Program-made: the position numbers and the translations under genes
In this document: in pieces, positions 1 to 37,286 of the stretch
How positions within the stretch are numbered: position 1 is the first letter of the stretch
Layout of the letters: each line of letters starts with the position of its first letter
Source of the DNA: a virus
Taxonomy: Duplodnaviria > Heunggongvirae > Uroviricota > Caudoviricetes
Reading direction: 5' to 3' (one strand)
Length of the DNA: 38,561 nt
Virus record (IMG/VR): IMGVR_UViG_2703718787_000016
The notes under the pieces: generated by a model
Told to the model about the DNA's origin: nothing
Databases searched by the model: none
The model's input: the letters and a program-made list of their open reading frames with translations, nothing else

Positions 1-480
1 TCATAGCGGCTGCCAGGTTATGGGTAACCACTGCCAGGCGGCACCGGGTTCCATCTGGGCCAGCTTCATGACATAACGCGGTTGTTGAGATAAAGCGTCC
101 AGCTTCGGCATTAATAAAGTTTGTGCGGCGTTATAAAAAACCGGTTCGAGATTCTTCGGCAGACTGGTCAACGTTTCGTTACGCAGCAGTTTCGCCACGC
201 CTTGTGGATTGATATAGAGCGGAACGATGCCATCAGTGGGTATTACATCCACCATTGCCGGGCGGGTTTTATTCAGTGTTTGCAGCGCGTTATTAACCAG
301 CGTGTCATCGAGGGAGAAAAGCAGCGTTTTGTTTTGCATCGCCAGCGACACGCGGAAAAAATAATCCGACATTAATTGATCGGGTTGCGCCGCCTGCGCT
401 TTCGGATACTGGCCGTATCGGGAACTCACTTCGCGACGCCAGATTTGCCCTTCGCCCTGCTGAGTCTGGCTTACCGGCAA
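1..480 (-). CDS. Host chromosomal gene, partial (5' end in window, 3' end beyond position 1); product not recognised
   Basis: Open frame on the minus strand running off the window edge. It begins with TTG at 480..478 preceded by an AAGG Shine-Dalgarno-like motif, with no in-frame ATG upstream before a stop at 537..535. It lies outside the prophage, left of the candidate att core. Confidence 0.45.
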   Translation of the reverse strand: MPVSQTQQGEGQIWRREVSSRYGQYPKAQAAQPDQLMSDYFFRVSLAMQNKTLLFSLDDTLVNNALQTLNKTRPAMVDVIPTDGIVPLYINPQGVAKLLRNETLTSLPKNLEPVFYNAAQTLLMPKLDALSQQPRYVMKLAQMEPGAAWQWLPITWQPL

Positions 481-526
481 AACACCTTCTGGAGATTTAA
501 CACACCTTACTCCCCTTGATGATTTA

Positions 527-537
527 CTTATTTTTCA
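527..537. other. Candidate attL core (cttatttttca)
   Basis: Near-identical to ttttattttca at 37321..37331. On the minus strand each copy contains an in-frame TGA: the one at 37331..37329 terminates the right-hand host ORF. Inexact match, so the core boundaries are uncertain. Confidence 0.3.
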
Positions 538-581
538 ATGACTAAATCAAAACAAGGGGAGCAAATTAACGCAAATTACAA

Positions 582-1589
582 CTAGTCAATGGACAGTTTA
601 TGGACACTATCAGCCAGCGGATTAAAGCTAATCGCATCCTGTAAAAAGTCCGGTGAAAAATGCGCATACGTCATCGTTTGTTGAATCGTGGCGTGCCCAA
701 GGATTCGCTGTAACGTAACGATATTTCCGCCGTTCATCATGAAATGCGTGGCGAACGTGTGACGCATAACGTGAGTCGCCTGACCTTTGGGTAAATCCGG
801 TTTCACCTCCTGAAGGATATCCCGAAAACGGATGTAATCAGCCTGGTACAATAGCCCGGTTTTTCGGGTTTTTATCAACGAAAGCACCGTATCAGAAACA
901 GGAACCGCGCGGGATTTTCCATTCTTTGTGTTAAAGAACATTACGCGGTTACCAACGATATGCTCACCACGTAAGCCAGCTGCTTCCCCCCACCTTGCGC
1001 CAGTGGAAAGACACAGAACAGCAACACGACGCGCATCCCCCTCGAGTCGTTCAAGCAGCCGATCAATCTCATCATCTGAAAGAAAGGCCATTTCTGTATT
1101 CCTGACCTTGAGCTTACGTATTCCACGCACCGGGTTTTCGTTATGGAAAACCTCCGCATCAATCAGCGAGGTAAACATTGCAGACAAGGCGCACAAATCA
1201 CGATTAACACTGGAGGGCATTAATCCGGCCTGTAATTTGTCTGAACGATACCCGAGCATAAACTTTCGCGTCATCTCACTGGCGCGGGGGTCCCTCATCT
1301 CACGGTTTATTTTTTCCAGCCTGACCCTGTAAGTATCCCCGTAAGGCTGATTCCGGCCATCAAGCACCCACCAGGCATCTATCAGTTCGGATAACCGACG
1401 CTGATCAGCTGGCTTGGCCTGCCACGGTTTATCGTGGAAATTCTGCAAAACATACCTTTCAAACTCCTGTGCCTTTGACTTCAGGGTAAAAATCTTACGG
1501 ATCCGCTTTCCTTCCGTCCCTTGCGGTCTTACATCAACCTTATAACGCCCGTCTTTGAGTTGCTTAATCGACATGATTAGCCCCTCCAA
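582..1589 (-). CDS. int: Tyrosine site-specific integrase, P2 Int-like
   Basis: 335 aa with phage-integrase catalytic-domain signatures (ARWGEA, HVMRHTFATHFMMNGGNI, LQRILGHATIQQTMTYAHF, carrying the Arg, His-x-x-Arg and Tyr residues). Located at the prophage end next to att and upstream of the repressor, as in P2. Confidence 0.93.
   Translation of the reverse strand: MEGLIMSIKQLKDGRYKVDVRPQGTEGKRIRKIFTLKSKAQEFERYVLQNFHDKPWQAKPADQRRLSELIDAWWVLDGRNQPYGDTYRVRLEKINREMRDPRASEMTRKFMLGYRSDKLQAGLMPSSVNRDLCALSAMFTSLIDAEVFHNENPVRGIRKLKVRNTEMAFLSDDEIDRLLERLEGDARRVAVLCLSTGARWGEAAGLRGEHIVGNRVMFFNTKNGKSRAVPVSDTVLSLIKTRKTGLLYQADYIRFRDILQEVKPDLPKGQATHVMRHTFATHFMMNGGNIVTLQRILGHATIQQTMTYAHFSPDFLQDAISFNPLADSVHKLSID
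589..607. promoter_or_regulatory. Candidate integrase arm-type binding sites (P' arm): two direct ATGGACA repeats
   Basis: ATGGACAgtttATGGACAc overlapping the 3' end of int; a 17/19-identical copy sits at 37287..37305. Resembles the TGTGGACA arm-site consensus I recall for P2 Int. Confidence 0.4.
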
Positions 1590-1643
1590 CGGATGAATCA
1601 GCCGTACACTCTCTACGGGATGAAACCCGCTCGATGTACAGCG

Positions 1644-1985
1644 TTAGCCAGCATTGCGACGAGATCGGGGTGATTTTTGGGTAATGCCGATTGAAACCTG
1701 ATCGCCCTCCGACTGAATGGAGCCATCAAGAGAGAGAGCCGGGGCAACCTGCCCGGCAGCGGGAAATGTTTTGTCGTGAAGTATCCACATAGTGTATTTT
1801 TCGAATCGCTCGACTTGGATTACTTTTTCTACAACCTCAATTCGCGCAGGTTTATATCCAGACTCATAATTTCCTATAGTTCCTACAGAAACTCCCGTTA
1901 CTTGCGAAAACTGAGATTGTGTAAGGTTTTCCGCGTTTCTGATTGCCTTTAGTTTTTTGGCGTAATCTCTTGACATGTTCACCAT
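1644..1985 (-). CDS. Immunity repressor, P2 C-like (HTH_XRE)
   Basis: An N-terminal helix-turn-helix (LTQSQFSQVTGVSVGTIGNYESG) follows the ATG at 1985. It is transcribed with int and divergent from or overlapping the early operon start. The listed ORF extends to a GTG at 2126, so the start is uncertain. Confidence 0.75.
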   Translation of the reverse strand: MVNMSRDYAKKLKAIRNAENLTQSQFSQVTGVSVGTIGNYESGYKPARIEVVEKVIQVERFEKYTMWILHDKTFPAAGQVAPALSLDGSIQSEGDQVSIGITQKSPRSRRNAG

Positions 1986-2008
1986 ACGATGAGTATCCTC
2001 TATTCGAA

Positions 2009-2026
2009 CTTCACCACAGGGTGAAG
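2009..2026. promoter_or_regulatory. Perfect inverted repeat CTTCACC-ACAG-GGTGAAG in the repressor/early-operon switch region (candidate operator)
   Basis: A 7-bp perfect palindrome with 4-bp spacer between the repressor start and the early operon start. Confidence 0.3.
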
Positions 2027-2088
2027 TAAACAAATCAAAACAAACCTTCATGATGCGCGACAAGCGCACCAACGCAAGAGGATAGCAA

Positions 2089-2613
2089 ATGCGGAAGTCA
2101 ATTGCCGATAAAGAGTTATCTGACACACAAGCCCTTCAGGAAAACGACAGCATCACCGAATCCGTTGGCGCGGCAAACGACGATGAACACCAAGAGGAAA
2201 AGAAAAAACGCACCTACAAAAAAGGGGCAACCTTGCGACTGGATGGCCCGGTAGCCGGACTTTGCTCACTTGAAAAAGGGGCAGCCTATATCGGGTTGAC
2301 AAAAGCTGCATTGCGCGTGGCGCTTCAGCGAAATCAGATGCCTGGACACAAGACCCGTTCAAACCCTGAAGATGAAAATTCGGATGGCGTATGGTGGTTT
2401 AACGCCAGAGAGTGGGACAAGCTGGCTGACGAACTACCAGAATGCGAGCCGCCAGAATGGCACAACTGGAAAAGCTACTGGACGTACGACCGACAGAAAA
2501 GAAAGTTTTCCCCGGCAAACAAAGAAGACTGCCAGACCATCAATGGAAAGCGGGTTTACACAGGAAGAAAGTCAAAACTGGAGCAACACCAATACAGCGA
2601 AGGCAACCAGTGA
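2089..2613 (+). CDS. Cox/Apl-like early regulator (excisionase/repressor-type HTH); true start possibly internal (TTG at 2233)
   Basis: The segment GAAYIGLTKAALRVALQRNQMP...GVWWFNAREWDKL resembles the P2 Cox HTH and the following aromatic motif, and it is the first gene of the rightward early operon. The ORF is longer than Cox; an AAGGGG Shine-Dalgarno motif precedes TTG 2233. Confidence 0.5.
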   Translation: MRKSIADKELSDTQALQENDSITESVGAANDDEHQEEKKKRTYKKGATLRLDGPVAGLCSLEKGAAYIGLTKAALRVALQRNQMPGHKTRSNPEDENSDGVWWFNAREWDKLADELPECEPPEWHNWKSYWTYDRQKRKFSPANKEDCQTINGKRVYTGRKSKLEQHQYSEGNQ

Positions 2614-2664
2614 CATCAAAACAAACCGGGATCATTAAGAGCATCGGGATTTGAATGTGTTGAC

Positions 2665-2859
2665 ATGACTGACTCCACTCAAACAAAAGACTTATACAGC
2701 GATTTACGCTTCATCATCATACAACAGCAATCAGGCAGGATGGATCCAACACGTGCAAGCAAGGCCTGGAAAGAAGCCCTTACCGATCAGGGGATCGATG
2801 TAATTAGCGAAGTCATGGCTGAAGTGATTTTTAGGCTGACAAGAGACGAATCACTGTAA
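2665..2859 (+). CDS. Hypothetical early protein (64 aa)
   Basis: ORF in the early operon, same strand, no recognisable motif. Confidence 0.4.
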   Translation: MTDSTQTKDLYSDLRFIIIQQQSGRMDPTRASKAWKEALTDQGIDVISEVMAEVIFRLTRDESL

Positions 2860-2884
2860 TCATCGCATAAGGACCGAGTGAAGA

Positions 2885-3208
2885 ATGAAGCAACAACGAA
2901 ATGCACGCATCAATAACAACACCGAACGCCACGTTGCACGCCAGCACTTCCGTAAAAATAGTGCGACCGCAACCACTGAAATCCATACCACACCAGACGG
3001 TCATCCGGTAAAACAAACCGGAAAGCACACCTGGGCGATTGGCGACACTGGCATCGTTATTCACAAAAGTTTTCGTAGCCCTGTTACTGGCAGATTTAAT
3101 TTTACCCTGACTCGCGGAGATGATTACTTCGGACAGGACTTCACATTTTTTGAAGCGTTAAGAACGGTCGATCGGTTAATGACTGGTCGTAATTTTCACG
3201 CTAAATGA
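2885..3208 (+). CDS. Hypothetical early protein (107 aa)
   Basis: ORF with ATG after a GAG-rich Shine-Dalgarno-like region in the early operon; no recognisable motif. Confidence 0.5.
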   Translation: MKQQRNARINNNTERHVARQHFRKNSATATTEIHTTPDGHPVKQTGKHTWAIGDTGIVIHKSFRSPVTGRFNFTLTRGDDYFGQDFTFFEALRTVDRLMTGRNFHAK

Positions 3209-3221
3209 TACAGATGAAAAC

Positions 3222-3437
3222 ATGGAAACATACAAAATTAAAAATATTGAACACCATGACGGTTTTTTCAGCACTGAACATGTTGCTTGTGTTGTCAGGA
3301 TTTTCAATGAAGTAGATGTGATTTTGAAGCAAAACATAAAGCTTGAAATCATCGCAAAAAGCGAAGCCGACGCCATTGAAATAAAAAAAGCTATTGAACG
3401 CCAGATAATGCCGTTGACAAGTATCATTGCATTTTAA
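3222..3437 (+). CDS. Hypothetical early protein (71 aa), AT-rich
   Basis: ORF in a visibly AT-rich patch of the early operon. Confidence 0.45.
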   Translation: METYKIKNIEHHDGFFSTEHVACVVRIFNEVDVILKQNIKLEIIAKSEADAIEIKKAIERQIMPLTSIIAF

Positions 3438-3455
3438 GCAACAGGAAAAATAACC

Positions 3456-3695
3456 ATGACCAGAAATTACAAAGAAATCGTCAATCAGATCATTAAGGCT
3501 TACAGCCACCGCATCGCAAAATCACCCGAGTTCATACGCATAATGGAGACGCGCTCATTAATGCAAGGACTGAACGGGTTGGCACTGGCCGCATTGGCAG
3601 CTAACGATATTGATGCCACTATCGAAATAAACAACCTGTTATTAGACATTGAAAAAGGCGGAAACATAGAACCCTACAATCTGGAGGCCGCATGA
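3456..3695 (+). CDS. Hypothetical early protein (79 aa)
   Basis: ORF preceded by a GGAAAA-rich leader; ATGA overlap with the next small ORF suggests translational coupling. Confidence 0.5.
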   Translation: MTRNYKEIVNQIIKAYSHRIAKSPEFIRIMETRSLMQGLNGLALAALAANDIDATIEINNLLLDIEKGGNIEPYNLEAA

Positions 3696-3817
3696 GCGTA
3701 TTTCTTTCGTGGGTAATTCTGATTATCTCCGTGCTTATGACAATCGGCATTATGCGAATTATCCACACACTGAAGGATATCGAATTATTCTTTACCGGCG
3801 ATAAACGCCGTAAATAA
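3692..3817 (+). CDS. Small hydrophobic peptide (41 aa, one predicted transmembrane segment)
   Basis: Translation MSVFLSWVILIISVLMTIGIMRIIHTLKDIELFFTGDKRRK; its start overlaps the upstream stop (ATGA). Below the ORF-track size cutoff, so the call is tentative. Confidence 0.35.
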   Translation: MSVFLSWVILIISVLMTIGIMRIIHTLKDIELFFTGDKRRK

Positions 3818-3829
3818 AGCGAAAACCTT

Positions 3830-3931
3830 ATGAAGAATGTAAAAGCAATACTCACCATCGCCACTGTATGGGTGATATTTCAGGTGAGTGCGCTTATCTG
3901 GTTAGCCCTGAAGAATCTGGGGATAATCTGA
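3830..3931 (+). CDS. Small hydrophobic peptide (33 aa, one predicted transmembrane segment)
   Basis: Translation MKNVKAILTIATVWVIFQVSALIWLALKNLGII, immediately downstream of the 41-aa peptide. Tentative. Confidence 0.3.
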   Translation: MKNVKAILTIATVWVIFQVSALIWLALKNLGII

Positions 3932-4007
3932 AGCCGAAAGCAGGCGCGGAATAACACCAGAAAACACACGAACAATTAATTAAGGCATTCATGCCTTCGG
4001 ATTCCCT

Positions 4008-4262
4008 TTGTCTTTTTTCATGAGTCAACAAATGAGAACAGCCGAATCACCCGGCAGAAAAATAACCGCCAGACCAGCTAACCATCATGCACATATCAGC
4101 ATTGCCGCAAGAAAAGCCGAGCGTGCGCATATCTGCGAATTGCTGCATGACCTGGTTAACACAGCGAGAGAGAAGCACACCTCCCCGGAGGAAACCTGTT
4201 CATCCATTGAACGACTGATTGCAATACTCGCCAACCCAGACGAACTGAAGGGGTGCGCATAA
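4008..4262 (+). CDS. Hypothetical early protein (84 aa or shorter)
   Basis: ORF whose stop overlaps the exonuclease start (TAATG). Confidence 0.4.
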   Translation: MSFFMSQQMRTAESPGRKITARPANHHAHISIAARKAERAHICELLHDLVNTAREKHTSPEETCSSIERLIAILANPDELKGCA

Positions 4263-4843
4263 TGAACCATCTCATGATTGACACCGAAACACTGGGTAAC
4301 GGACCGGACGCAGCCATATTCGCGATTGGGGCGGTGTTTTTCGACCCGTTCACCGGAAAGCTGGGCAAGCAGTTTGAGAAATTCATCGACCCGGTGGATT
4401 CAGAACGCAACGGCGGAACCGTCAATGCAGCCACCGCTGTATGGTGGGCCGGACAATCCGTGGAAGCCAGAGCCTGCCTGCGCAACGCAGATGGAACAGA
4501 GCTGGCAGCAGTGACCGAATTTCTGGCGTTCATTTCACGCAATATGCATGACGAAAGCCCGGGCAATTCACTGAACATATGGTGTAAGGGCGCATCCTTC
4601 GATTTCCCGATCCTGAAATCCGCCATAACACGCACAGCCGGAGAAAAAAGCATCCCCTGGTGCTACTGGAACGAGCGCTGTATGCGCCCGCTTATCGCCA
4701 TGGCTGAATCAACTGGATGGAAAATGCCAGGCAGATCAGGCAAAGAGACCATTGCTCACACCGCGCTGGGCGACGCCGTTTACCAGGCAAAGGTCGTGTC
4801 AGAAATCTGGCAGCGCTTCACAACACCATTCCTGAACATATGA
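4262..4843 (+). CDS. 3'-5' exonuclease, DEDDh (DnaQ-like) family
   Basis: Exo motifs MIDTETLG (Asp-x-Glu), FDFPIL and HTALGDAVYQA (His...Asp). Confidence 0.8.
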   Translation: MNHLMIDTETLGNGPDAAIFAIGAVFFDPFTGKLGKQFEKFIDPVDSERNGGTVNAATAVWWAGQSVEARACLRNADGTELAAVTEFLAFISRNMHDESPGNSLNIWCKGASFDFPILKSAITRTAGEKSIPWCYWNERCMRPLIAMAESTGWKMPGRSGKETIAHTALGDAVYQAKVVSEIWQRFTTPFLNI

Positions 4844-5076
4844 GGTGAAGCCATGGTCGCCATCCTGAATGTGTGTTGCTGCCCCCCCCTGAACGTGGAA
4901 AGAAAAGCCCGCGCATCGCTGCGTTTATTCCGCGACGGCGTGCGGAATTTTTCACGCATAAAACCCCACGACTACCTGGTAATAAGAATCGGTTTTCGCT
5001 GGCGATTGCTGAGCAAAAACAACGGGGCGTCATGGGATTTATTAACGCACGAAACCTATAACAAAGAGGCCGCGTT

Positions 5077-6021
5077 ATGAGCAAAGAACTGTTATCCGGC
5101 ACGCCGCTTAAATGGGTGGGCGGAAAAAGTCGCATCATGAACACACTGAAGGCGCATCTGCCAGAAGCAGACTGCCTGGTTGAGCCGTTTGTGGGTGGCG
5201 CATCGGTATTCATGAACACCAGTTACAAGCGTTACATCCTGGGTGATTCCAATGGTGCGCTGATTAATTTCTACCGGCAAGCCAGGGACAACACCGACAG
5301 CCTGATCGACGAGGCGAAAACCCTGTTCCTGAACCACAACAACAGGGGTGACTATCTCATCATTCGCGAAACCTTTAACGCAGAGAATCATGCCTTCCTG
5401 AACAGCAGAACGGGAATAAGCGACCGCCGTGAACTGCGACTGGCCGCCATGTTTTTGTACCTGAACCGACACAGCTTTAACGGTTTGTTCCGCGTGAACG
5501 GAAAAGGCGATTTTAACGTGCCTTTCGGCTGCTACCGCAAGCCCTACTTCCCTGAGCGGGAAATCCGCGCATTTGCAGACAAGGCAAACAGCACCCGAAC
5601 GCTGCTTATCCACGCAGATTTTAAGGATACGCTGAACTCTGCCAGTCACCTGTTCGGCATGGGCAACACGCTTTGCGTGTACTGTGATCCCCCTTACCTG
5701 CGATTCAGTGGCCGGGACAATTTCACCGCCTACGGAAAACCATTCGATGAAGACGAGCACGTTCGTCTGAGGGCAGCGCTTGACCGCCTTTCACAGGAAA
5801 CGGGCGGCATGACCAGCATCACCATATCCAATTCCGACACACCGGAAACCAGACGCATTTATCAGGGTTACCGGATGAACGCCATCCAGGCACCACGAAG
5901 CGTTGGCGCAAGAACCCGGGAATCAGCACCGGAGGTTATCGCCACCCTGAGATGCATCACATCCGCCTTATCAACGGTTCGCACTTCTGCGCCACGAACA
6001 TGGAAGAAGTACGCGTGCTGA
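5077..6021 (+). CDS. dam: DNA adenine (N6) methyltransferase, Dam family
   Basis: N-terminal KWVGGK and FVGGASVF (SAM-binding motif I) and the catalytic DPPY motif (VYCDPPYLR). Confidence 0.9.
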   Translation: MSKELLSGTPLKWVGGKSRIMNTLKAHLPEADCLVEPFVGGASVFMNTSYKRYILGDSNGALINFYRQARDNTDSLIDEAKTLFLNHNNRGDYLIIRETFNAENHAFLNSRTGISDRRELRLAAMFLYLNRHSFNGLFRVNGKGDFNVPFGCYRKPYFPEREIRAFADKANSTRTLLIHADFKDTLNSASHLFGMGNTLCVYCDPPYLRFSGRDNFTAYGKPFDEDEHVRLRAALDRLSQETGGMTSITISNSDTPETRRIYQGYRMNAIQAPRSVGARTRESAPEVIATLRCITSALSTVRTSAPRTWKKYAC

Positions 6022-6049
6022 CAGCAACACGCAATACGGGAGGTAAAGC

Positions 6050-6400
6050 ATGGCAGTGATTTATATCGCCGGTCCCATGACCGGATGCAAAGACCACAAC
6101 AGGACGGCATTTTGCGTGGAGGACCTGAAACTTCGGTGCGCCGGAAACATCGTTCTTAATCCTGCCGTACTGCCTGACGGATTAAGCCAGCAGCAGTACA
6201 TGAGCATTTGTATTCCGATGCTCATGTGTGCCGATGCCATTTACTTACTGGAAGGCTGGGTGGATTCAGCTGGCGCGCGGGCGGAGTACGTAATGGCACT
6301 CAAACTGAACATGCCAGTGTCATTCCCGGAAAACCGGGCAGCCGGAGAAACCATCGCGCAGCTGCTTCACAAATCAAAAGCCGCACAGGCGACTGAGTAA
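6050..6400 (+). CDS. DUF4406-like (nucleoside 2-deoxyribosyltransferase-like) protein
   Basis: N-terminal MAVIYIAGPMTG motif typical of this family; immediately downstream of dam. Confidence 0.6.
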   Translation: MAVIYIAGPMTGCKDHNRTAFCVEDLKLRCAGNIVLNPAVLPDGLSQQQYMSICIPMLMCADAIYLLEGWVDSAGARAEYVMALKLNMPVSFPENRAAGETIAQLLHKSKAAQATE

Positions 6401-6838
6401 CCGACCGGAGATCGAAACATGATTGCGCGAAGAGCTGCCAACCGCCTCACAGGCTTTATTCCAGGCAAGGTTGATCATGCACTCCATCACGGGGCTGTCA
6501 CTTTCCTCAACAAAGGAGAGGCGCGCAATCATGCATTCCGGAGTGAGCACGTGGCGCTGGCTAATCAGTCTTTGATAGCTAAGCGCCTGCCATTCAGCCT
6601 TTTCAGCTCTGATAGAAAGAGAGGCAGCCATGACCTGCCACACCAGAAAGAGCACCACACTGGCGAAAACAAACGTTGCGCTGTCGCAAAAAATGAATGC
6701 GGCAACAATCGCAAGGAAAGCGCTAATCCTCAGAACCAAGGAAGCGCGACGGTGGAGAAGGCTTGTCATGTGTTCAAGCCAGTAGCTGTACCACAGGTCA
6801 AAAAGAATTTCGTAATCAGAAGGGAGCTTATCACTCAT
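6374..6838 (-). CDS. Predicted membrane protein encoded antisense to the early operon (about 154 aa)
   Basis: ATG at 6838 followed by two long hydrophobic segments (ISAFLAIVAAFIFC, FVFASVVLFLVWQVMAASL). The plus strand across this stretch has no convincing gene. Confidence 0.4.
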   Translation of the reverse strand: MSDKLPSDYEILFDLWYSYWLEHMTSLLHRRASLVLRISAFLAIVAAFIFCDSATFVFASVVLFLVWQVMAASLSIRAEKAEWQALSYQRLISQRHVLTPECMIARLSFVEESDSPVMECMINLAWNKACEAVGSSSRNHVSISGRLLSRLCGF

Positions 6839-7221
6839 CAGAAACACCCCGCGTATGCAGACAATCACCAGTTGCCAGGTGATATTAATTCGCCACATTC
6901 TAACCACATCAGCACGCAACACAAAAACCGCTTGCCAGCGCTCGTCGTGTCGGGTTACATTTCCGCTGCACCTCATAAAACGGGTGCCGGGATTTCCACC
7001 CTGCTGACTAGCAAAGCGCACTACCGCGCCAGCGGTTTTTTTGTGCGTACTGTATTGCCACGTTTTTTTCGCATCAGAATTATGGCGGGGCGTACGGGGC
7101 CGACTTCGGTCGGGCCGGGTTCTTTGCTAGCCGGTTGTGGAAACCCTGTACGTCTCGCCACCCCGAGTTTTCCACCTCCGGTTGGTGAGTTTTCAAAACT
7201 TACTAGCAAAGAGGCCACACC

Positions 7222-7443
7222 ATGGCAAACCGCAAGCAACAGCGCGCCCGCGCTGAGCGTCTTCACATCCGCAGCGAAATCAACCGCAGACTTTTCCGCG
7301 CAACACGCGTCGCGCAAATCATGCATATCAACATGCTGCATGAGCGCACGCACGCACTATCAAACCGTTACTGCGCTGCCGTCTTCAGCTATCTGGCCGA
7401 AGACCTGGCAGAACTGCAAAGCCTCATCAACCAGCACCGATAA
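7222..7443 (+). CDS. Hypothetical basic protein (73 aa)
   Basis: ATG preceded by an AGAGG Shine-Dalgarno motif; Arg-rich N-terminus. Confidence 0.4.
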   Translation: MANRKQQRARAERLHIRSEINRRLFRATRVAQIMHINMLHERTHALSNRYCAAVFSYLAEDLAELQSLINQHR

Positions 7444-7511
7444 ACCACATCCGGAAGCTATCCCACACCTGCACGCGGGAGGCTTCCGCACATCTGTTAC
7501 CGGAGGTTCTC

Positions 7512-7928
7512 ATGAAGAGCGTTAAGGGACTTTCAGATATTCAGGACTTCTTTAACTGGATGTGGGCGGTGGATCCCCTGCTGGCTTCCCGCCTGAACAA
7601 CTGGCACGACTATTACCGCCGCGCCTGTAAACAGGCCGCCCGCAGCATCACCACATACGGGGATTTCTCCTTCACCGTTGACGGTCGTTACCGCGTGGAC
7701 GTGAAAGGTGACGGTGATGGCTTTGGTTTATTTCACATCAACGGCACCGACAGTACCGCCATCAGCTGGTCATCGTCAGAGATGGCACTGGTTCTGGAAA
7801 TGACAACCCACAGCGTGGCCGTGAAAGGCATATACACCGCAGAAGACTTTATCGGTGAATACCAGCGCCTTCTCGTGCTGTACCGCGCGGCGTTTCAGGA
7901 GGTCACTGGCGGGGAGTACGACGCATGA
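7512..7928 (+). CDS. Hypothetical protein upstream of the replication gene (138 aa)
   Basis: GGAGG Shine-Dalgarno motif before the ATG; stop overlaps the gpA start (ATGA). Confidence 0.55.
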   Translation: MKSVKGLSDIQDFFNWMWAVDPLLASRLNNWHDYYRRACKQAARSITTYGDFSFTVDGRYRVDVKGDGDGFGLFHINGTDSTAISWSSSEMALVLEMTTHSVAVKGIYTAEDFIGEYQRLLVLYRAAFQEVTGGEYDA

Positions 7929-10438
7929 GTGACCGCAATGCACAGCTGGCGTACCCGTGGAACGCACCGCTACCGGTTATCGATCCTGAAACGTTCGGCA
8001 GAGCACAACCAACCGCATTACGCCAGGCCATTCAGAGCTACATCAACGAGGACATTCGCATTGATGCCAGACTGGATGAAGAAACCGTCTCCTTCCTGAC
8101 AAACACAGACGAAGGCAAGCGAATTAATTCGCATCTTCACCACGACGAAGAGCGTCGGGTCAGACTGGAAAAACTGGCGAAGCACAAACGCGAGAATCCG
8201 CCCACGGTGGTATCGGAAGCCATGGCAGAACTTCGCGCCCTGCCCTCGTTTCTTGGCAACGTGCTCATTCGTGATCTGGCGCGTTTAAACCGCAAACAAC
8301 AAAGCGCCCGCAATGAAGGCGTGAAAAACAACAACACTCACGTGGCCGATAACTTCGTTCGCCGTGGACTGCGCACACGCCTGAAACGCATCGAACAGGT
8401 GAATGAATGCTTCGCCACGACGGCATTCAAAGCCACCGCAGCGCGTCATCGCCTTGATGAATTACTCATGCTGCCACAACTCAACCGTGATCAAATTCAG
8501 CGCCTTGCCACACTAACGGCGGCGGCATTTTCCACCGAACTGGAACGCATATGTGATGAAGTTACTGAGCGGACAGGAAAAGGCGACGATAACCTGTTTA
8601 CCTGGTTGCTGACTTACCAGCAGCTGGCGCGCATGGCAATAAAACTGGGCGTGAACCCACCATACTGGCCGTCACTCGAGATCAGACGTGACCGCCGCAC
8701 GGCACCAGACCCTGAACGGGTACCGGGCGCGGTAATGCGTATCACCTGCGCCACCTGGTGGAACAACCAGCTGCGCCACCTCGCTGATCTCTGGCGGGAG
8801 GAATTACTGCGTGCCGCCGGAAGAGTATCGCGCAAGGCATCCCCCTACATCAGCCATGAGTCACTCCAGGAATTCCGGGAGAAACGCCAGCGCACCCGTG
8901 ATTTTCTCAAAAGCTGGGACATTGAAAACGAAGACGGTGAACGCCTGAGCCTGGAGGACGTGTACTGGTCAGGGCTGGGGAATCCGCGCAACCGCCGCAA
9001 CGAGATGATGGCCTGCGTCAGAGGGATGGAACAGGTCGCCGAATCGCGTGGTGACTCCGCGTTCTTCGTGACAGTGACCTGCCCTTCCCGCTTTCACAGC
9101 GTAAACGAGGACGGCAGCCTGAACCAGAAATACAACGGTGCCACCGTGCGCGATGCCAGTGATTATCTGGTTTACGACGTCTTTGCAGCTGCAAGAAAAA
9201 AACTCAACAAAGAAGGCCTGAGCTGGTACGGGGTGCGCACCGTTGAGCCACACCATGACGGCACACCGCACTGGCACATGCTGGTATTCACCGCCCCGGA
9301 CAATGAAGAACGCATCATTGAAATCATGCGTGACGCAGCAATCAAATCAGATCGCGCAGAACTGGGGAATGATATTTCTCCGCGCTTCAAGTGCGAAAAA
9401 ATCGACCCGGCAAAAGGCACACCGGCAAGCTACATCGCAACCTATATTGGCAAGAACCTGGACGCCAGCACCTTTCACGACAATGACCCGAAAACCGGCA
9501 AACCTTACGCCGATAAAGAATCGGGAAAAACCATGGCGGAAACCGTGGAAAACGCCATTGCCTGGGCGAGTCTCCACCGCATCCGGCAGTTCCAGTTCTT
9601 CGGTATCCCGCCCCGCCAGGTATGGCGTGAACTCCGCCGCCTTGCCGGACAAATGGAGCGTAACCCCGCATCACCGAAGCGCCTGGACCATGACGACATT
9701 GACGCCATTCTGGCCGCCGCTGACGTGGGGTGTTTTGCCACCTACATCAACCGTCAGGGCGGCGTGCTCATTCCACGCAACCTGTACCTGATCCGCACCG
9801 CATACGAAACCGCAGATGAGGCCAACGACTACGGCGAATTCCCGCAGCGCATCTACGGAATTTGTGCCCCGTCGCTCGGCGAGCGCTACACCATCTGCAC
9901 CCATCCGGACGAGTGGAAACTGGTCAGAAAAGAAGCGAAAGCCGACAACAGCACGGACGAGGATTTTGACGTTGGGGGCGGCTTCGCCGCACCTTGGACT
10001 CGTGGCAATAACTGTCCCCATGATGAAAAAACAGACACCGGAGAGGGTAAAACCCCACCACCGGAAACCAGGAAAGAACAAAAACTGACCATCCCGGAAG
10101 GTGATTTGAGCGAATGGTTAAGGTCACTGACCCCCACAGAGAGAAAACAACTCACCAGGCAGCTGAAAGATGCGCCATCTGACACAAAAACCGTGAAAAC
10201 CGGCGGCCCCACCACGCCCGATGACGTCATACATGTGCGTACAGCATTGCCGCTGACTGACGTCACCACCACCGTAATCAAGTCGGCACTGAGCACGACG
10301 GGCGAGGAGCTACACAGTGGCGCAGCACTTTCCGTACACAGAGGTGCACGCGTTCGCCTGCCTGACGGGCGGATTGTGCACTGGGATGAAAAATCACGAA
10401 GCCTGGTGGCAGCAGATCAACCGGAGGTTAACCCATGA
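7925..10438 (+). CDS. A: Replication initiation endonuclease, P2 gpA-like (rolling-circle HUH initiator)
   Basis: 837 aa with an HUH-type metal motif (HHDGTPHWHMLVF) and paired active-site tyrosines (YIATYIGKNL); position and size match P2 gene A. Confidence 0.92.
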   Translation: MSDRNAQLAYPWNAPLPVIDPETFGRAQPTALRQAIQSYINEDIRIDARLDEETVSFLTNTDEGKRINSHLHHDEERRVRLEKLAKHKRENPPTVVSEAMAELRALPSFLGNVLIRDLARLNRKQQSARNEGVKNNNTHVADNFVRRGLRTRLKRIEQVNECFATTAFKATAARHRLDELLMLPQLNRDQIQRLATLTAAAFSTELERICDEVTERTGKGDDNLFTWLLTYQQLARMAIKLGVNPPYWPSLEIRRDRRTAPDPERVPGAVMRITCATWWNNQLRHLADLWREELLRAAGRVSRKASPYISHESLQEFREKRQRTRDFLKSWDIENEDGERLSLEDVYWSGLGNPRNRRNEMMACVRGMEQVAESRGDSAFFVTVTCPSRFHSVNEDGSLNQKYNGATVRDASDYLVYDVFAAARKKLNKEGLSWYGVRTVEPHHDGTPHWHMLVFTAPDNEERIIEIMRDAAIKSDRAELGNDISPRFKCEKIDPAKGTPASYIATYIGKNLDASTFHDNDPKTGKPYADKESGKTMAETVENAIAWASLHRIRQFQFFGIPPRQVWRELRRLAGQMERNPASPKRLDHDDIDAILAAADVGCFATYINRQGGVLIPRNLYLIRTAYETADEANDYGEFPQRIYGICAPSLGERYTICTHPDEWKLVRKEAKADNSTDEDFDVGGGFAAPWTRGNNCPHDEKTDTGEGKTPPPETRKEQKLTIPEGDLSEWLRSLTPTERKQLTRQLKDAPSDTKTVKTGGPTTPDDVIHVRTALPLTDVTTTVIKSALSTTGEELHSGAALSVHRGARVRLPDGRIVHWDEKSRSLVAADQPEVNP

Positions 10439-10839
10439 CACGATTCCATTGCGTACTCCAGCGCCATGATTTCAGCACCATCATGAACGCACGCATTCCG
10501 GCACTGACACTGAGCGGCGTCAGTGTTCGACCGCAGCCAGGCGACGAACTGGAAATCACGATCGCCAGTCCCGATCGCAGCACAGACACCGTTATGACCG
10601 ACATCCTGACTGCAAGAATCAACACCGACAGAAGCGCATTCATCGTTGCCGTGCGCCCTCGTCGCGCCATATCAGAGCCTGAACCACTGACTCCCGTAGG
10701 AAAAATCATGCAGGCATACCACGAAAAACAGACCAGAAAACTCAACGAAGAACTGGCAAGAACGCTGGCCGTCGTTAACCGAAAAGCGGCAATTGTCCGC
10801 TATGTGCATTCGGCCGCCAGCAGGCAATCACGCAGGTAA
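10435..10839 (+). CDS. Hypothetical protein after gpA (134 aa)
   Basis: ORF overlapping the gpA stop; no motif recognised. Confidence 0.5.
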   Translation: MTRFHCVLQRHDFSTIMNARIPALTLSGVSVRPQPGDELEITIASPDRSTDTVMTDILTARINTDRSAFIVAVRPRRAISEPEPLTPVGKIMQAYHEKQTRKLNEELARTLAVVNRKAAIVRYVHSAASRQSRR

Positions 10840-10887
10840 CAAAAGACCATGAACATGACCAGAAACAGCAAACCGAAGGAGCACACC

Positions 10888-11058
10888 ATGAACGACATCA
10901 GGAGGATCAGCGACAAAGAGCTTACGAAAATGATTGAGTCGGCGCAGCAGCTGCTTTCACGACGAAATCCGGTTGTGGAAGAAACATGGTGGGAAAATTT
11001 ACTGGCAGCACTGACCGAACTCCGCGAACGCCGGAACAACGAAGGAGCCGCCAAATGA
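10888..11058 (+). CDS. Hypothetical small protein (56 aa)
   Basis: AAGGAG Shine-Dalgarno motif upstream of the ATG at 10888; stop overlaps the next start (ATGA). Confidence 0.4.
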   Translation: MNDIRRISDKELTKMIESAQQLLSRRNPVVEETWWENLLAALTELRERRNNEGAAK

Positions 11059-11393
11059 AGACACCCAGAATGACCGGAAAGGTAATCATTTTACGCTACC
11101 TGGAAACGCACGCACGCTTCAGCGCACCAGAGCTGGTTGAAAAACTGGGCGTGAAAAGGACCATCATTAATCAGGCCGCCGGGAAGATGGTACGCGAAGG
11201 GCTGCTGGTTGTGGACGGGTACACGGACAAGATAACGCATTACCGGAAGCTAACGGAAAAGGAACGACTGGAGCTGGCGCAACGGGCAGAATGGCAACAA
11301 GAGCCGTCCGTAATTGAAGCCTGCAAGCGCAGCGAAATCATGAAGCGAATTCTATTTATCTACGGCGCTGGCGAAGAGCTGCCAGTCATCTAA
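11055..11393 (+). CDS. Putative winged-helix DNA-binding protein (112 aa)
   Basis: GGAG Shine-Dalgarno motif then ATG at 11055; helix-turn-helix-like segment (SAPELVEKLGVKRTIINQAAGKMVREGLL). Assignment by pattern only. Confidence 0.45.
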   Translation: MKTPRMTGKVIILRYLETHARFSAPELVEKLGVKRTIINQAAGKMVREGLLVVDGYTDKITHYRKLTEKERLELAQRAEWQQEPSVIEACKRSEIMKRILFIYGAGEELPVI

Positions 11394-11425
11394 CCCCAAC
11401 AATAAAACCAACACGGGAGACAAAT

Positions 11426-11743
11426 ATGCCAACACAGGTTGCAACAGAGGGACGACTGGCAGCAGACCCGAACACAAGGAGAACAACCAAAGGAACCAAC
11501 GTCACAACGGCACAACTGGCGGTATCACTACCCTGCCATGGCGCAGAACAGCCAACCACAATGTGGCTTTACCTTATTGCATTCGGGAAGCAGCACGAAG
11601 AACTGGCAAAACACAGAAAAGGCGATCTGATTCTGGTGCACGGAAACTTGCAGGTAAACAGGTATCAGGACAAGTACGGGCAACAGAAAGAGGGCTGGCA
11701 GTTGCTGGCGCAAAGCATTATCAGCTCAAGAACCGGGCGATGA
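11426..11743 (+). CDS. SSB-like OB-fold protein lacking a C-terminal tail (105 aa)
   Basis: Aligns by eye to the bacterial SSB OB-fold core (EGRLAADP...T..G..V; WLYLIAFGKQHEELAKHRKGDLILVHGNL...Y.D.YGQ), with no Gly/Pro-rich linker or acidic tail. Confidence 0.6.
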   Translation: MPTQVATEGRLAADPNTRRTTKGTNVTTAQLAVSLPCHGAEQPTTMWLYLIAFGKQHEELAKHRKGDLILVHGNLQVNRYQDKYGQQKEGWQLLAQSIISSRTGR

Positions 11744-11753
11744 CTTCACGCAT

Positions 11754-11794
11754 GTTACCCTCAGCAGCGAGGGTAACACAGGATTTCTTTTTTC
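11754..11794 (+). terminator. Rho-independent terminator ending the early operon
   Basis: Perfect 9-bp stem GTTACCCTC/GAGGGTAAC with 6-nt loop, followed by a T-run (tttcttttttc). Confidence 0.5.
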
Positions 11795-12329
11795 AGTCAA
11801 ACCGAAATCGGCCGCTTGTCGCGTATGCATAGGTGACCACCGCACCCAGCGCATTCACACGCTTCTTCACATAAATCACATTACCATCCTGATAGTCACC
11901 GTATGGGTAGCAAATAAATATTGTTTTTTGCAAATCAGGATCATCAACAAATGCCCCTGAACAACTTTTTGAGCTACCGCGACTGTACTCATAGGGAGCG
12001 GAATAGAATGAATCTTCACCCGGAAGAAAATATATCAGCGTAACCAGGAGGGTAAACAGAATCATCCAGGTAAGAAGGCACATACCCGAAAAAAACTTAA
12101 GATACGATGTAACCCCGGTAAATTTAGACCGATCAACCAGGTTCTTTTTCAACAGGCACAGTGAGACAAAAACCGAAAGCACCACAGACACTGAAACAAG
12201 GCAGTTTGTCGTGAACGAATAAAGGTAGGTAATTCTGTAAACATCGTTTCGCCACCAAATAAAAAGAAAAATCCCCCCCAAAACAGAAAGCGTGACAAAA
12301 GTTAAATAAGGATATGAGTAATTTTTCAT
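11793..12329 (-). CDS. Accessory membrane protein of unknown function (178 aa; three hydrophobic segments and a Cys/Tyr-rich C-terminal domain)
   Basis: ATG at 12329; hydrophobic segments (LTFVTLSVLGGIFLFIWW, LVSVSVVLSVFVSLCLL, MCLLTWMILFTLLVTLIYFL). AT-rich codon usage unlike the neighbouring phage genes; sits between the early-operon terminator and the candidate cos. Confidence 0.55.
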   Translation of the reverse strand: MKNYSYPYLTFVTLSVLGGIFLFIWWRNDVYRITYLYSFTTNCLVSVSVVLSVFVSLCLLKKNLVDRSKFTGVTSYLKFFSGMCLLTWMILFTLLVTLIYFLPGEDSFYSAPYEYSRGSSKSCSGAFVDDPDLQKTIFICYPYGDYQDGNVIYVKKRVNALGAVVTYAYATSGRFRFD

Positions 12330-12691
12330 AGTTCTCACCCGGCAGTCTCCCACTGATTCAGACAGATGAATATCATCACCACCTGCCACAAAAAATCGCA
12401 AGATCAAAACTGCACAAAAGCGCACGAAATTGCACAATTTTTCTAATGTACTTTTTCCCCATTCCGCCCGGTAACGGCGCTGGCTGAAGCCACTTTGCAC
12501 GGTGCACGAAAAACAAGGCAATTGCAGCGCGCAGGCGACGAGGGAAGGGCGCCCGAATTGAGGGGTGGAAGGCAGGTTGCTTTATTTGGGGTCGTATTGC
12601 GCGTGATACGCGCGCAGTGAAGCCAGTTTTGAAAAACCACATCAAAACATGGTCAGGGAAACAGGCCGTCAGAATGCGTCTGATTGCGTCT

Positions 12692-12723
12692 GGCGAGGTC
12701 GGAGATCGGGAGGGAAACGGATG
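12692..12723. other. Candidate cos (cohesive-end) region
   Basis: GGCGAGGTCGGAGATCGGGAGGGAAACGG loosely resembles the P2/186 cos sequence as I recall it (GGCGAGGCGGGGAAAGCA) and lies where cos is expected, between the replication-distal accessory genes and Q. Weak, memory-based match. Confidence 0.25.
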
Positions 12724-12874
12724 TGACGAACGGGATAAAAAAGAGAGACAAAAATCACTGAAATCATAAAGTTAATAGAATTTAAAGTATCAGTCATTCA
12801 CGGGTGAAAACTTGCGCACAATATGAGGTGAGCGCAGAATACAGGCTGGCATAAACAGACCAAAGGAGAGCGAC

Positions 12875-13378
12875 ATGAGCCATTTTCGCGATTTGTACCT
12901 GGCAAACAAAAAGAGCCGGGACGCGAGGCGGGAGGTTACAGGGATTCTGCGCAATCAGGCTGAAAAGCTGGTTGCTTTTTATGAGCAGTGGCTGGAATTG
13001 CCTTCAGAGACATGGGAAGACAAAGACGGCGAGCATCATCGTTACGTTGATACGGGGTTTCCGTGCAGAAACGATCGGGACTTCAGGCCATTTCCGGTAA
13101 ATATGATTGCAACCGACACAGATAACATATTCCGGATGGCTGTAAGAACATGGGTTGACTCACACGATGAAGGAGAGTCGGTAAACATAGTCCTGGCAAT
13201 GGAATTACATTCCGTCGGAAAAGACGGTGTATCTCTTCGGGTTCGCGTGGAAGATGATACCTCCATTCGCGTGGTCATCAACGGAGACGGTGACAGGGAA
13301 TGGCTGCCGATAGTAAACAGCATGAAGATACATATTATCAGCAAGCTGCAAAGAAGAACGCCATCCGCATTCCGTTAA
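12875..13378 (+). CDS. Accessory soluble acidic protein of unknown function (167 aa)
   Basis: Strong AAGGAG Shine-Dalgarno motif before the ATG at 12875; followed by its own terminator hairpin; no motif recognised. Confidence 0.6.
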   Translation: MSHFRDLYLANKKSRDARREVTGILRNQAEKLVAFYEQWLELPSETWEDKDGEHHRYVDTGFPCRNDRDFRPFPVNMIATDTDNIFRMAVRTWVDSHDEGESVNIVLAMELHSVGKDGVSLRVRVEDDTSIRVVINGDGDREWLPIVNSMKIHIISKLQRRTPSAFR

Positions 13379-13392
13379 GAGAGCTGGAGAGT

Positions 13393-13417
13393 CGGGGCAT
13401 AAATTTTTTATGCCCCG
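13393..13417. terminator. Bidirectional terminator hairpin between the accessory ORF and portal gene Q
   Basis: CGGGGCATAAA-TTT-TTTATGCCCCG perfect inverted repeat with an A/T-rich centre, between convergent genes. Confidence 0.6.
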
Positions 13418-13443
13418 GCGAAGCAGCAGACAAGCGAAGCGCG

Positions 13444-14487
13444 TCAGCTGGCGTTATCCAGAAGCAGGGCATAGGGGTTAAAGCGCATCACCTCAACGCC
13501 AAGCCATTCATTGACATGCTTCATGGCCTCCATGACAGGTTGCAACTCGTTGATGAAAAACACTCTCGCCGCTTTTTCAACGTCACCAAACGCCGCATTC
13601 CCGTCAGGCATTGCCCCCATCAGTTGAGGTGGTACACGATGGGCAGCAAGGATATCGTCGCGGGCGCTCCCCTTGATGTTCAGGAATTCATCCTTTGCGG
13701 TTATCTGCTGGAACGGCAGTATTTGCACACCATCCTTGCCACCACCCGGCGCATGTAGAAACAGGTTTTTAAACGCCCCGCGACCACGGGAATCCGTAAG
13801 CGTTTTTTTAATGGCCTCGACACTTTCCGCATTCGCCTGAGATGTGCCTACATAGATAATACACCCGGCATGAGAGCCGTTATCGTAGTAGAGCTTGCGG
13901 AATGTATCCGCTGAGTTTGACAGGCTGACAGACAGCAACCCGCCGATATATTCCGGCATCCCGTAGATCTCCTGATTAATATCAGGATTAAGCACGTGGC
14001 ACACAGTCCCTTTCCTGAAACTGAACTCCGTACCGTCGTCGTTGAGATACCAGTAGGTATCCAGGTCACTTCCCCTGCGTGTATATTTTGCCAGTGCCGG
14101 GCGAAGCAGGAGTGGTTCCCCCAGCCTGTTACGCCGCACTTCAAGATAGGCATTACCAAACACAAACCAGTCGAGCGCAAACGCTGAAAACGCCTGGCGG
14201 GACAGCAGAGGGTGAGGAACAAAGCACCCGTTCAGGGCGTTGCGCTTGAAGTACAAAGCCGACTGATGCCAGGACGCACGACGGGATGCACGGGCGATAG
14301 CGTTCCAGTCCATGGGGGTATCAAAGTAGCGCCCGTTATCTGCACATGACATGTTATCCAGGAGATCCATGCGGCTGACTTCATAGGGCCCATCAAAGGT
14401 GAATGCGCTGAGTGCAGGCGTTGATTTCAGTGCATCGTGTAGCGAATCCTGCCCCCTCTTTCCGGTGTATTTTTTGCGTTTACTCAT
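13444..14487 (-). CDS. Q: Portal protein, P2 gpQ-like
   Basis: 347 aa, matching P2 Q in size and in position next to the terminase ATPase on the same strand. Confidence 0.9.
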   Translation of the reverse strand: MSKRKKYTGKRGQDSLHDALKSTPALSAFTFDGPYEVSRMDLLDNMSCADNGRYFDTPMDWNAIARASRRASWHQSALYFKRNALNGCFVPHPLLSRQAFSAFALDWFVFGNAYLEVRRNRLGEPLLLRPALAKYTRRGSDLDTYWYLNDDGTEFSFRKGTVCHVLNPDINQEIYGMPEYIGGLLSVSLSNSADTFRKLYYDNGSHAGCIIYVGTSQANAESVEAIKKTLTDSRGRGAFKNLFLHAPGGGKDGVQILPFQQITAKDEFLNIKGSARDDILAAHRVPPQLMGAMPDGNAAFGDVEKAARVFFINELQPVMEAMKHVNEWLGVEVMRFNPYALLLDNAS

Positions 14488-14492
14488 TGTGT

Positions 14493-16241: not shown

Positions 16242-16291
16242 TAACAGGGCAAGATTAAGCCTCAGCAATACCGCCTGATACCAGCCCGCGT

Positions 16292-16309
16292 TGTCCCCGT
16301 CGCCATACA
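16292..16309. promoter_or_regulatory. TGT-N12-ACA element in the divergent P/O late promoter region (candidate Ogr binding site)
   Basis: TGTccccgtcgccatACA sits between the divergent P and O starts, matching the dyad consensus of P2-family late promoters. Confidence 0.5.
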
Positions 16310-16381
16310 ACTTAAGCACCTTGAGACACACCGTTATCTGCCGCCATCATGGGAAAAACGACCAGGTTATGGAGAATTTCC

Positions 16382-28595: not shown

Positions 28596-28606
28596 CGGAG
28601 AGACTC

Positions 28607-29194: not shown

Positions 29195-29204
29195 ACAGTG
29201 ACCT

Positions 29205-29696: not shown

Positions 29697-29706
29697 CTTT
29701 TTCACC

Positions 29707-33036: not shown

Positions 33037-33083
33037 TTTCAGTCTCCACGGCTGGATCCCCGCCGTTCTCTGTTAAACAATAA

Positions 33084-34780: not shown

Positions 34781-34934
34781 ATTATTCACCCTGCATTCGT
34801 GTGAGTTCAGCAGAGATCTTTACGAACACGGGGAGCTTTTTCACGAACTGCGGTTTCTCGCAATACACATACAACCCAAACTCATTCCGGTGGTGTTTCT
34901 GGTATGCAACTGTGGCGGGAAAAACGGAGGAATT

Positions 34935-36059: not shown

Positions 36060-36103
36060 AATGGCGACGAGTTCAACCCCAGTTCAGCCAGGGGGGTATA
36101 TCA

Positions 36104-36406: not shown

Positions 36407-36540
36407 CGGCTGGAAGGAAAACCTGAAGGCCGGATGTGGAAAGGCCCCGAGTCAAACATATTGTTTAACCCGAGGCCCTAACCATTCCTACCCTAGACAA
36501 GTGGAAGGTTAGCGCCTCCCTGTAAAAGGAGTCAAGCGCT

Positions 36541-37278: not shown

Positions 37279-37286
37279 TTTCAAAG

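Follow-up and report, generated by a model that had tools for sequence, protein, structure and literature searches.

The stretch of DNA analysed here (the window: 38,561 nt, IMG/VR record IMGVR_UViG_2703718787_000016, to the whole of which coordinates refer unless another sequence is named) consists of a P2-family prophage of 36,872 bp (positions 493..37364) and, on either side of it, a piece of the E. coli gene yfaA. The extent of the prophage follows from the offset of the host alignments, from the RefSeq annotation of the same DNA and from the similarity of its integrase (Int). To the left, the 3′ fragment of yfaA occupies positions 1..492 on the minus strand (codons ~401–562, with the stop codon at 1–3), in a frame that is open on that strand and has no start codon of its own. 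To the right, positions 37329..38561 (minus strand) carry a truncated yfaA fusion, an open reading frame (ORF) of 410 aa that specifies YfaA residues 1–400 followed by AGGFCMRLIN. The two flanking ORFs are the halves of one gene, broken by the prophage. We estimate at roughly 90% the probability that the phage was integrated by Int-mediated, site-specific recombination at a secondary attachment site within yfaA.

The empty site and the junctions in yfaA

The empty site was sought with megablast, using positions 1–700 of the window as the query against 5,426 complete E. coli genomes. The left flank found a match in 5,393 of them, the whole query being covered only in strain STEC2018-607; in the remaining 5,392 genomes the match ends at 492–498, inside an intact yfaA gene (DUF2138) adjoining yfaT. 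In strain EC31, where the site is empty, yfaA (1,689 nt, 562 aa) is located between gyrA and yfaT. Aligned base by base, positions 1–492 of the window correspond to positions 1–492 of EC31 yfaA (in the orientation of the locus) and positions 37363–38561 to positions 491–1689. This places the junctions at 492/493 (left) and 37364/37365 (right), and the size of the insert (36,872 bp) is given by the offset between the two host alignments. At the crossover, GG alone is common to attP and the yfaA site, and not a single host base was lost or duplicated.

The attB site in yfaA of EC31 reads CCGGCAAAACACCTTCTGG|CGCTTTGCTTTCG; it contains AAAACACCTTCTGGCGCTTT, and the uninterrupted junction runs ..AAAACACCTTCTGGCGCTTTGC... 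The corresponding attL is ..ACACCTTCTGG|AGATTTAACACACC and attR is ..GCAAAAACCGCCCGCAGG|CGCTTTGC. The attL core (479..498, plus strand) joins the host half AAAACACCTTCTGG to the phage half AGATTT, with the GG common to attP at 491–492, while the attR core (37351..37370, plus strand) joins the phage half AAACCGCCCGCAGG to the host half CGCTTT.

The Pfam profile for DUF2138 (560 positions) gives the same answer independently of the alignment: it is divided between the two ORFs, the right one covering profile positions 2–404 and the left one 400–560, as expected for a single gene. An earlier note on this DNA had taken the left ORF for the next gene of the same operon; it is the severed tail of yfaA. 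In RefSeq, both halves are annotated as partial pseudogenes (left, “missing N-terminus”; right, “missing C-terminus”). The cut falls after codon 400 of the 562, i.e., in the middle of the gene, and the gene product is altered: the wild-type sequence ..HESKAP-EGVLPVSQ.. has become ..HESKAP-AGGFCMRLIN*, so that the fusion protein ends in ..KAPAGGFCMRLIN* where the wild type (..KAPEGVLPVSQ..) runs on for another 162 residues. The last 162 codons are thus lost and 10 phage-encoded residues are gained. The TGA that closes the truncated YfaA (37329..37331, minus strand) lies 33–35 nt within phage DNA and is a fortuitous phage stop. The annotation of the locus can be corrected accordingly: yfaA is a pseudogene disrupted by a prophage with bounds 493–37364, and not two genes.

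In STEC2018-607, yfaT, directly downstream of the broken yfaA (locus L002, 2381–3004), also has a pseudogene annotation, with an internal stop. Decay of the yfaA–yfaT–alpha-2-macroglobulin cluster may already have been under way, lowering the cost of the insertion.

Arm-type sites and reconstruction of attP

The int gene (582..1574, minus strand) encodes a P2-type tyrosine integrase of 330 aa (Pfam Int_N, E=7.5e-28; Phage_integrase, E=7.1e-20), which shares 87% identity with Int of phage vB_EcoM-569R5, 55.6% with P2 Int (tblastn, 97% of the protein covered) and 48.5% with Wphi Int. The identical protein (WP_016237838.1) is found at other chromosomal sites. The earlier note had compared the direct ATGGACA repeats at both ends with the arm sites of P2 Int. 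This part of its reading is supported: the prophage is of the P2 type and has a tyrosine integrase for its integration, and the repeats occur above chance, fit the consensus and are kept in relatives.

With up to two mismatches allowed, the composite ATGGACA-N4-ATGGACAC occurs exactly twice in the window, both times on the plus strand, while shuffled sequences lead one to expect 0.04 occurrences. The lone heptamer ATGGACA is found at chance frequency (5 in the window; 5.6 expected). The P′ pair, ATGGACA-GTTT-ATGGACAC (589..607, plus strand), overlaps the last codons of int (..SVHKLSID*); the P pair, ATGGACA-TTAT-ATGGACAC (37287..37305, plus strand), has the same orientation. The repeats match the P2-type arm consensus tgTGGaCa (PMC3448106) at all upper-case positions and show one or two mismatches to TGTGGACA, at lower-case positions only. 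Relatives with an int region 83–100% identical all have an unchanged P′ pair, whereas in the 83–89% relatives one or two bases of the P pair are substituted (ATGGGCA..ATGGACAC; ATGGACG..CTGGACAC). The core has a pair on either side, with 59 bp from the end of the P pair to the crossover and 96 bp from the crossover to the start of the P′ pair. On these sequence grounds, we consider the ATGGACA repeats credible arm-type sites for Int.

The stretch from the P arm sites to the core contains a perfect inverted repeat of 11 bp, CTGAAAATAAA-tccct-TTTATTTTCAG (37306..37332, plus strand), within which the fortuitous stop is found. Its arms are conserved and its loop is different in a relative with 89% identity. 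A site for integration host factor (IHF) would be expected at just this place in the P arm, and the repeat may be a candidate binding site for an accessory bending protein.

Since the phage ends are constant across the integration sites described below, attP can be reconstructed as ..GCAAAAACCGCCCGCAGG-AGATTTAAC... The reconstructed site measures ~193 bp and comprises the P pair, the 11-bp palindrome, the core ..GCAAAAACCGCCCGCAGG|AGATTTAAC.., ~95 bp of P′ arm and the P′ pair.

Site usage in E. coli genomes

Using int with the P′ arm (499–1600) as a query, we found this region in 356 of the 5,426 genomes (364 copies), at least 99% identical in 16 of them. The attL junction is located upstream of dmsA, in the serS–dmsA spacer, in 344 genomes. 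Four other positions are occupied in one genome each: upstream of nadA, behind the lysT tRNA operon (strain S19-651; nadA–lysQ); downstream of rraA, adjoining zapB (JNEC-KY179); beside a hypothetical pseudogene (JNEC-KY177); and inside yfaA (STEC2018-607). At all five sites, the phage start AGATTTAACACACC directly follows host ..(A/T)GG, and in attR the phage end ..CTCATGCAAAAACCGCCCGCAGG (..CCGCCCGCAGG) abuts four different host sequences. The recurrence of the same phage end nucleotides at independent sites implies that the junctions belong to a fixed attP. Read from these identical ends at five independent sites, the recombination (attP x attB and attL x attR) would be catalysed by Int, with or without Cox and IHF. 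A literature search on an attachment site at serS/dmsA or in yfaA, and on the strain, returned nothing relevant.

In K-12, the primary attB is AAAAAAAGCGCCCGCAGGCGCTTTTT, 27 nt beyond the serS stop codon. It forms a hairpin, AAAAAGCGCC-CGCA-GGCGCTTTTT, between serS and dmsA; the RNA would fold with a stem of 10 bp (-16.3 kcal/mol; z = -4.7) that leads into a U-run, and we read it as the putative intrinsic terminator of serS. A terminator scanner made no call on the K-12 serS–dmsA spacer, which we think is due to an A/T extension of the stem that absorbs the T-run. Terminator hairpins of this type also form the nadA/lysQ and rraA/zapB sites, and the insertion in JNEC-KY177 seemingly disrupts a hypothetical gene. 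The proteins specified by the early genes of the S19-651 prophage are the same as those of the phage in the window, and the strain is from the same Zurich stool-isolate series.

Altogether, the analysis defines the core and arm sites of attP as well as the primary attB for a P2-family integrase type that is present in about 6.5% of the complete E. coli genomes. The natural use of secondary sites is documented with four named sites, which is useful for the prediction of prophage boundaries and for the use of this Int as a tool.

Target sequence and crossover

The yfaA site, AAAACACC-TTCT-GGCGCTTT, resembles the dyad AARNCNCC-N4-GGNGNYTT, a motif to which the other sites compared and attP itself also conform. 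Although it lies within coding sequence, it folds as GCAAAGCGCC-AGAA-GGUGUUUUGC (-15.3 kcal/mol; z = -2.9), and four attB sequences all fold as hairpins of 10–13 bp with loops of 4–5 nt. In the window, the dyad motif is present only at 479–498 (attL) and 37351–37370 (attR), and in none of 100 shuffles; in ~150 kb of fetched loci it occurs at att sites only. With its spacer of 5 nt, the nadA site of K-12 falls outside the motif; for S19-651, the attR suggests that the site of that strain is one G shorter. We infer that the inverted octamers are the core-type half-sites contacted by Int, and we would place strand exchange within the central CC-N4-GG or next to it.

At the primary site, attP and attB mismatch at positions -11, +1 and +3, and the way in which these mismatches segregate in attL and attR confines the exchange to 10 identical bases, CGCCCGCAGG. 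To the left of the crossover, the yfaA site matches attP at 9 of 17 bases and the primary serS site at 15 of 17. The right half of the attP core varies between groups of relatives: the phage of the window has GGAGATTT and the 89% group GGAGGTTT; in 569R5 and the 83% group it is GGCGCTTT, the same as in attB. For the group with an int region at least 99% identical, to which we return below, the attP core differs from the serS site by GGAGATTT vs. GGCGCTTT, and by C vs. G at position -11.

A second prophage and the arrangement of the chromosome

Strain STEC2018-607 harbours a second prophage of the same family at dmsA–serS. The Int proteins of the two are identical, and so are their Cox-like proteins. 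In the window, the latter is a protein of 174 aa (2089..2613, plus strand; Pfam Phage_Cox, E=1.4e-5, below the gathering score), which by its position corresponds to P2 cox and is a candidate excision directionality factor. The C-type immunity repressor, with a helix-turn-helix (HTH) domain (HTH_3 in Pfam; 1644..1985, minus strand), shows 31 differences between the two prophages over its 113 residues, most of them in the N-terminal half with the HTH; the operators are different too. The immunity region (1644–2088 in the window; 37606–38052 in locus L011 of RefSeq, described below) differs within an early region that is otherwise 95–100% identical. From the sequences, this looks like a swap of the immunity module, and the two phages are probably heteroimmune while competing for one attB.

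In the RefSeq sequence of the strain (NZ_CP075697.1), the prophages are arranged as yfaA′-attL..attR-serS at 0.855 Mb (855304–893987; L009) and as dmsA-attL..attR-′yfaA at 4.35 Mb (4349000–4391000; L011). The two RefSeq copies are identical from ~12.7 kb to 36.9 kb, which amounts to 24 kb of homology, and have opposite orientations on the chromosome. Homologous recombination between prophages so oriented inverts the serS–yfaA segment. The RefSeq arrangement and that of the window, which is un-inverted, differ by an inversion of ~1.7 Mb (equivalently, 3.46 Mb) through the identical late-gene DNA.

We give about even odds to an inversion between the two oppositely oriented prophages after integration, by which the yfaA attL and attR would now reside on two different hybrid prophages; such an event adds to the history of the integration. 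It would account for the RefSeq joins (yfaA′..serS and dmsA..′yfaA), with the 24 kb of homology as substrate, and for the mosaic composition of the window, made up of the left part of one RefSeq copy and the right part of the other. Against it, the window is contiguous and differs from both copies at ~34 shared positions, which points to an origin from another assembly version or isolate; moreover, with an identical repeat of 24 kb, either arrangement could be a choice of the assembly. There are two possibilities: the isolate carries the inversion, and another assembly version is the source of the window; or the 24-kb repeat was resolved differently in the two assemblies. The split of yfaA and both junction sequences are unchanged under either arrangement.

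The ORF for the large terminase subunit (14493–16331, minus strand) is intact in the window (612 aa, GTG start) and annotated as frameshifted in both RefSeq copies, suggesting that the window and RefSeq are different versions of the sequence. Inverted, near-identical prophages that join serS to yfaA in an isolate that is Shiga-toxin-producing by its strain name matter for the quality control of assemblies.

Integration at a secondary site and alternative explanations

The course of events that we favour for the integration in yfaA is as follows. STEC2018-607 would first have become lysogenic for a heteroimmune relative with an identical Int, inserted at the primary serS–dmsA site. With that site occupied, an incoming phage would have been diverted to a weak look-alike dyad in yfaA, to which Int would have joined attP by an exchange in or near CC-N4-GG, splitting the gene after codon 400. 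The occupied primary site is there to be seen in the same strain. As an integration event, this is an ordinary secondary-site case of a textbook P2-type phenomenon, and it does not overturn current understanding.

Several observations weigh against secondary-site integration by Int as formulated here. In RefSeq, the attL and the attR of yfaA belong to two different prophages. A contiguous attP was found neither in a phage collection (searched with 973 bp of reconstructed attP), nor in IMG/VR (two junction patterns), metagenome contigs or GTDB genomes, so that attP is a reconstruction; the sole IMG/VR match to the junction patterns is another attL at dmsA. Scanned with the IHF consensus WATCAANNNNTTR at up to one mismatch, the reconstructed attP gave no match, and with the cox-box consensus TTAAA(G/C)NC(A/C) (PMC3936717) it gave two weak matches only, each with one mismatch, although the Cox homologue is divergent and its boxes may differ. 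The sites that the dyad motif matches are also its source, so that its fit is circular and informative only by its absence elsewhere. S19-651 (nadA) and JNEC-KY179 (rraA) carry a single copy of int, at a secondary site, from which it follows that an occupied primary site is not a prerequisite for the use of another. Finally, the putative overlap sequences of yfaA (CCTTCTGG) and attP (CCCGCAGG) differ at three of eight positions. In lambda-type systems, such a mismatch in the overlap should strongly inhibit exchange; on that expectation, the positions of the cuts are uncertain. The three-position mismatch at yfaA also fits a rare event.

Among the ~18 copies in which the int region is at least 99% identical, 14 are at dmsA–serS and four at four different non-serS sites, two of which are inside genes. 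This hints that the variant with the mismatched attP core is less faithful in its choice of site, as far as can be judged from ~18 copies whose shared ancestry is uncorrected. Extending the argument, we suggest, tentatively and with the odds rather against it, that this Int subfamily may choose its targets by a terminator-like dyad architecture and not by extended core identity, that the core half GGAGATTT (vs. GGCGCTTT in the host) may relax the choice, and that the prophages of a double lysogen, heteroimmune and opposite in orientation, could then act as 24-kb substrates for flipping ~1.7 Mb. If true, the segment flipped would be serS–yfaA, roughly symmetric around the terminus.

The same counts bear on the idea that yfaA is the regular, preferred attB of this phage variant instead of a fallback of low efficiency. 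The idea draws on the mismatches between the attP core of the variant and the serS site and on the four copies at non-serS sites, two of them in strains without a second copy. Three observations make it improbable: yfaA is occupied in just one of the 5,426 genomes, though the intact yfaA that was checked contains the sequence of the site; 14 copies of the very same group are located at dmsA–serS; and the yfaA core is not the closer match to attP (9/17 vs. 15/17).

Illegitimate or transpositional recombination in place of exchange by Int could be invoked on the ground that strictly common bases at the crossover number just two (GG). We regard it as very improbable, considering that four other, independent sites have both junctions at exactly these phage nucleotides, that target duplication and deletion are absent, and that the target and the primary attB are built on a common dyad architecture.

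The earlier note had proposed integration at the 3′ end of a complete 410-aa gene, regenerated by a stop codon that an 11-bp att core carries. The sequences on which it drew are where it had seen them: cttatttttca at 527–537, ttttattttca at 37321–37331, and the repeats ATGGACAGTTTATGGACAC and ATGGACATTATATGGACAC at 589–607 and 37287–37305. Each 11-mer indeed yields an in-frame TGA on the minus strand, and the one at 37331..37329 does terminate the 410-aa ORF; integration at gene 3′ ends is, besides, common among phages, and P2 relatives of the 186 type use tRNA genes (PMC3448106). The true junctions, however, are ~35 bp away from either 11-mer. Their likeness (8/11) is at the level of chance: 81 such pairs of 11-mers are found between the two 200-bp ends, vs. 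~53 in shuffles, and the best of these matches are the arm repeats. The left 11-mer (527..537, plus strand) is part of the phage P′ arm, 34–44 bp from the junction, and kept in relatives within a P′ arm that is generally conserved; the right one is contained in the inverted repeat of the P arm. We tried the two as the true att core and rejected them, as both travel with the phage to other chromosomal sites. The comparison with an empty site, which the note itself had named as the check, revealed other junctions and a single continuous gene of 562 aa in place of the two flanking ORFs, both of them outcomes that the note had said would refute its model. With the DUF2138 profile divided between the two halves and with a TGA that is phage DNA and rebuilds nothing, integration at a gene 3′ end has next to no probability left.

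Comparison with known integration systems

Secondary-site integration by Int has a close counterpart in P2. The likeness extends from the Int protein (55.6% identity), the int–C–cox gene order beside attP and the P2-type late genes to the presence of two direct arm repeats on each side of the core, a short core that matches imperfectly, and one preferred site together with rare secondary ones. In E. coli, P2 has preferred and secondary attB sites (locI, locII, locH and others), and in P2 double lysogens the second prophage is found at other sites, as known from Bertani and Six's classical work on P2 genetics. The phage of the window differs from P2 in its core and attB, the latter being the putative serS terminator and not one of the P2 loc sites; in its arm heptamer (ATGGACA vs. 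TGTGGACA in P2); and in its Cox-like protein of 174 aa, which scores below the Pfam threshold for Phage_Cox, good cox-boxes and a match to the IHF consensus not having been found in the reconstructed attP.

Prophages vB_EcoM-569R5 and 705R2, with the family of 83–89% identical int regions at dmsA–serS in E. coli, are a second point of comparison. They share the Int family (87% aa identity), the primary attB, the P′ repeats and the palindrome in the P arm. The right half of their attP core, GGCGCTTTAAC or GGAGGTTTAAC, is identical or closer to attB, unlike that of the phage in the window (GGAGATTTAAC). None of the fetched members of the 569R5/705R2 group is located in yfaA.

Phages that regenerate the 3′ end of their target gene (186, HP1, Fels-2 and P4 in tRNA or tmRNA genes; phage 21 in icd) likewise give att-flanked prophages that adjoin host coding sequence. 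At the primary site of the phage studied here, attR rebuilds most of the serS terminator hairpin (AAAAACCGCC-CGCA-GGCGCTTTTT). At yfaA, in contrast to the regenerating phages, nothing is rebuilt and codons are lost. The secondary sites of lambda (galT; proA/B when attB is deleted) resemble the yfaA case in their low frequency, their partial similarity to the core and the frequent inactivation of a gene; the integrase lineage and the core are others, and the event described here occurred in a natural isolate and was not selected in the laboratory.

Other genes of the prophage

Among the early genes, RefSeq annotates the integrase, the HTH repressor, the Cox-like protein and a replication endonuclease, in the order int–C–cox beside attP. 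The late genes comprise those for portal, terminase, GPO scaffold, P2-family capsid, lysis, baseplate, sheath, tube, tape measure and gpD. Further annotated genes encode an Ogr/Delta zinc finger protein and two Hok/Gef proteins.

Three ORFs (6374–7021, minus strand; 11793–12329, minus strand; 12875–13378, plus strand) have neither a significant Pfam match nor a match in PADLOC, whose scan for defence systems returned no matches for the cargo ORFs. Two of the cargo ORFs without a Pfam match are located between ssb and the portal gene, an interval that in P2-like phages is a frequent location for accessory or defence genes. A protein with a ParE-like toxin domain (Pfam, E=1.1e-17) is encoded at 4853–5080 (plus strand), with no obvious antitoxin partner annotated.

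The two Hok/Gef genes belong to a unit of ~375 bp that is tandemly duplicated between ogr and the P arm (36371–36744 and 36847–37219; ~92% identical) and is present as a single copy in some relatives. Each unit contains an ORF of 46 aa (36541–36681; 37013–37153; Pfam HOK_GEF, E about 1e-6), so that the end of the prophage appears to carry two type I toxin-antitoxin cassettes. An ORF of 688 aa (21319–23385, plus strand) downstream of the lysis genes combines the domains DUF1737, SASA (sialate O-acetylesterase) and DUF6645. Its product resembles esterases of the NanS-p type, for which Stx and lambdoid prophages are the usual carriers; here, in a strain with a name that marks it as Shiga-toxin-producing, the gene is found in a P2-like prophage.

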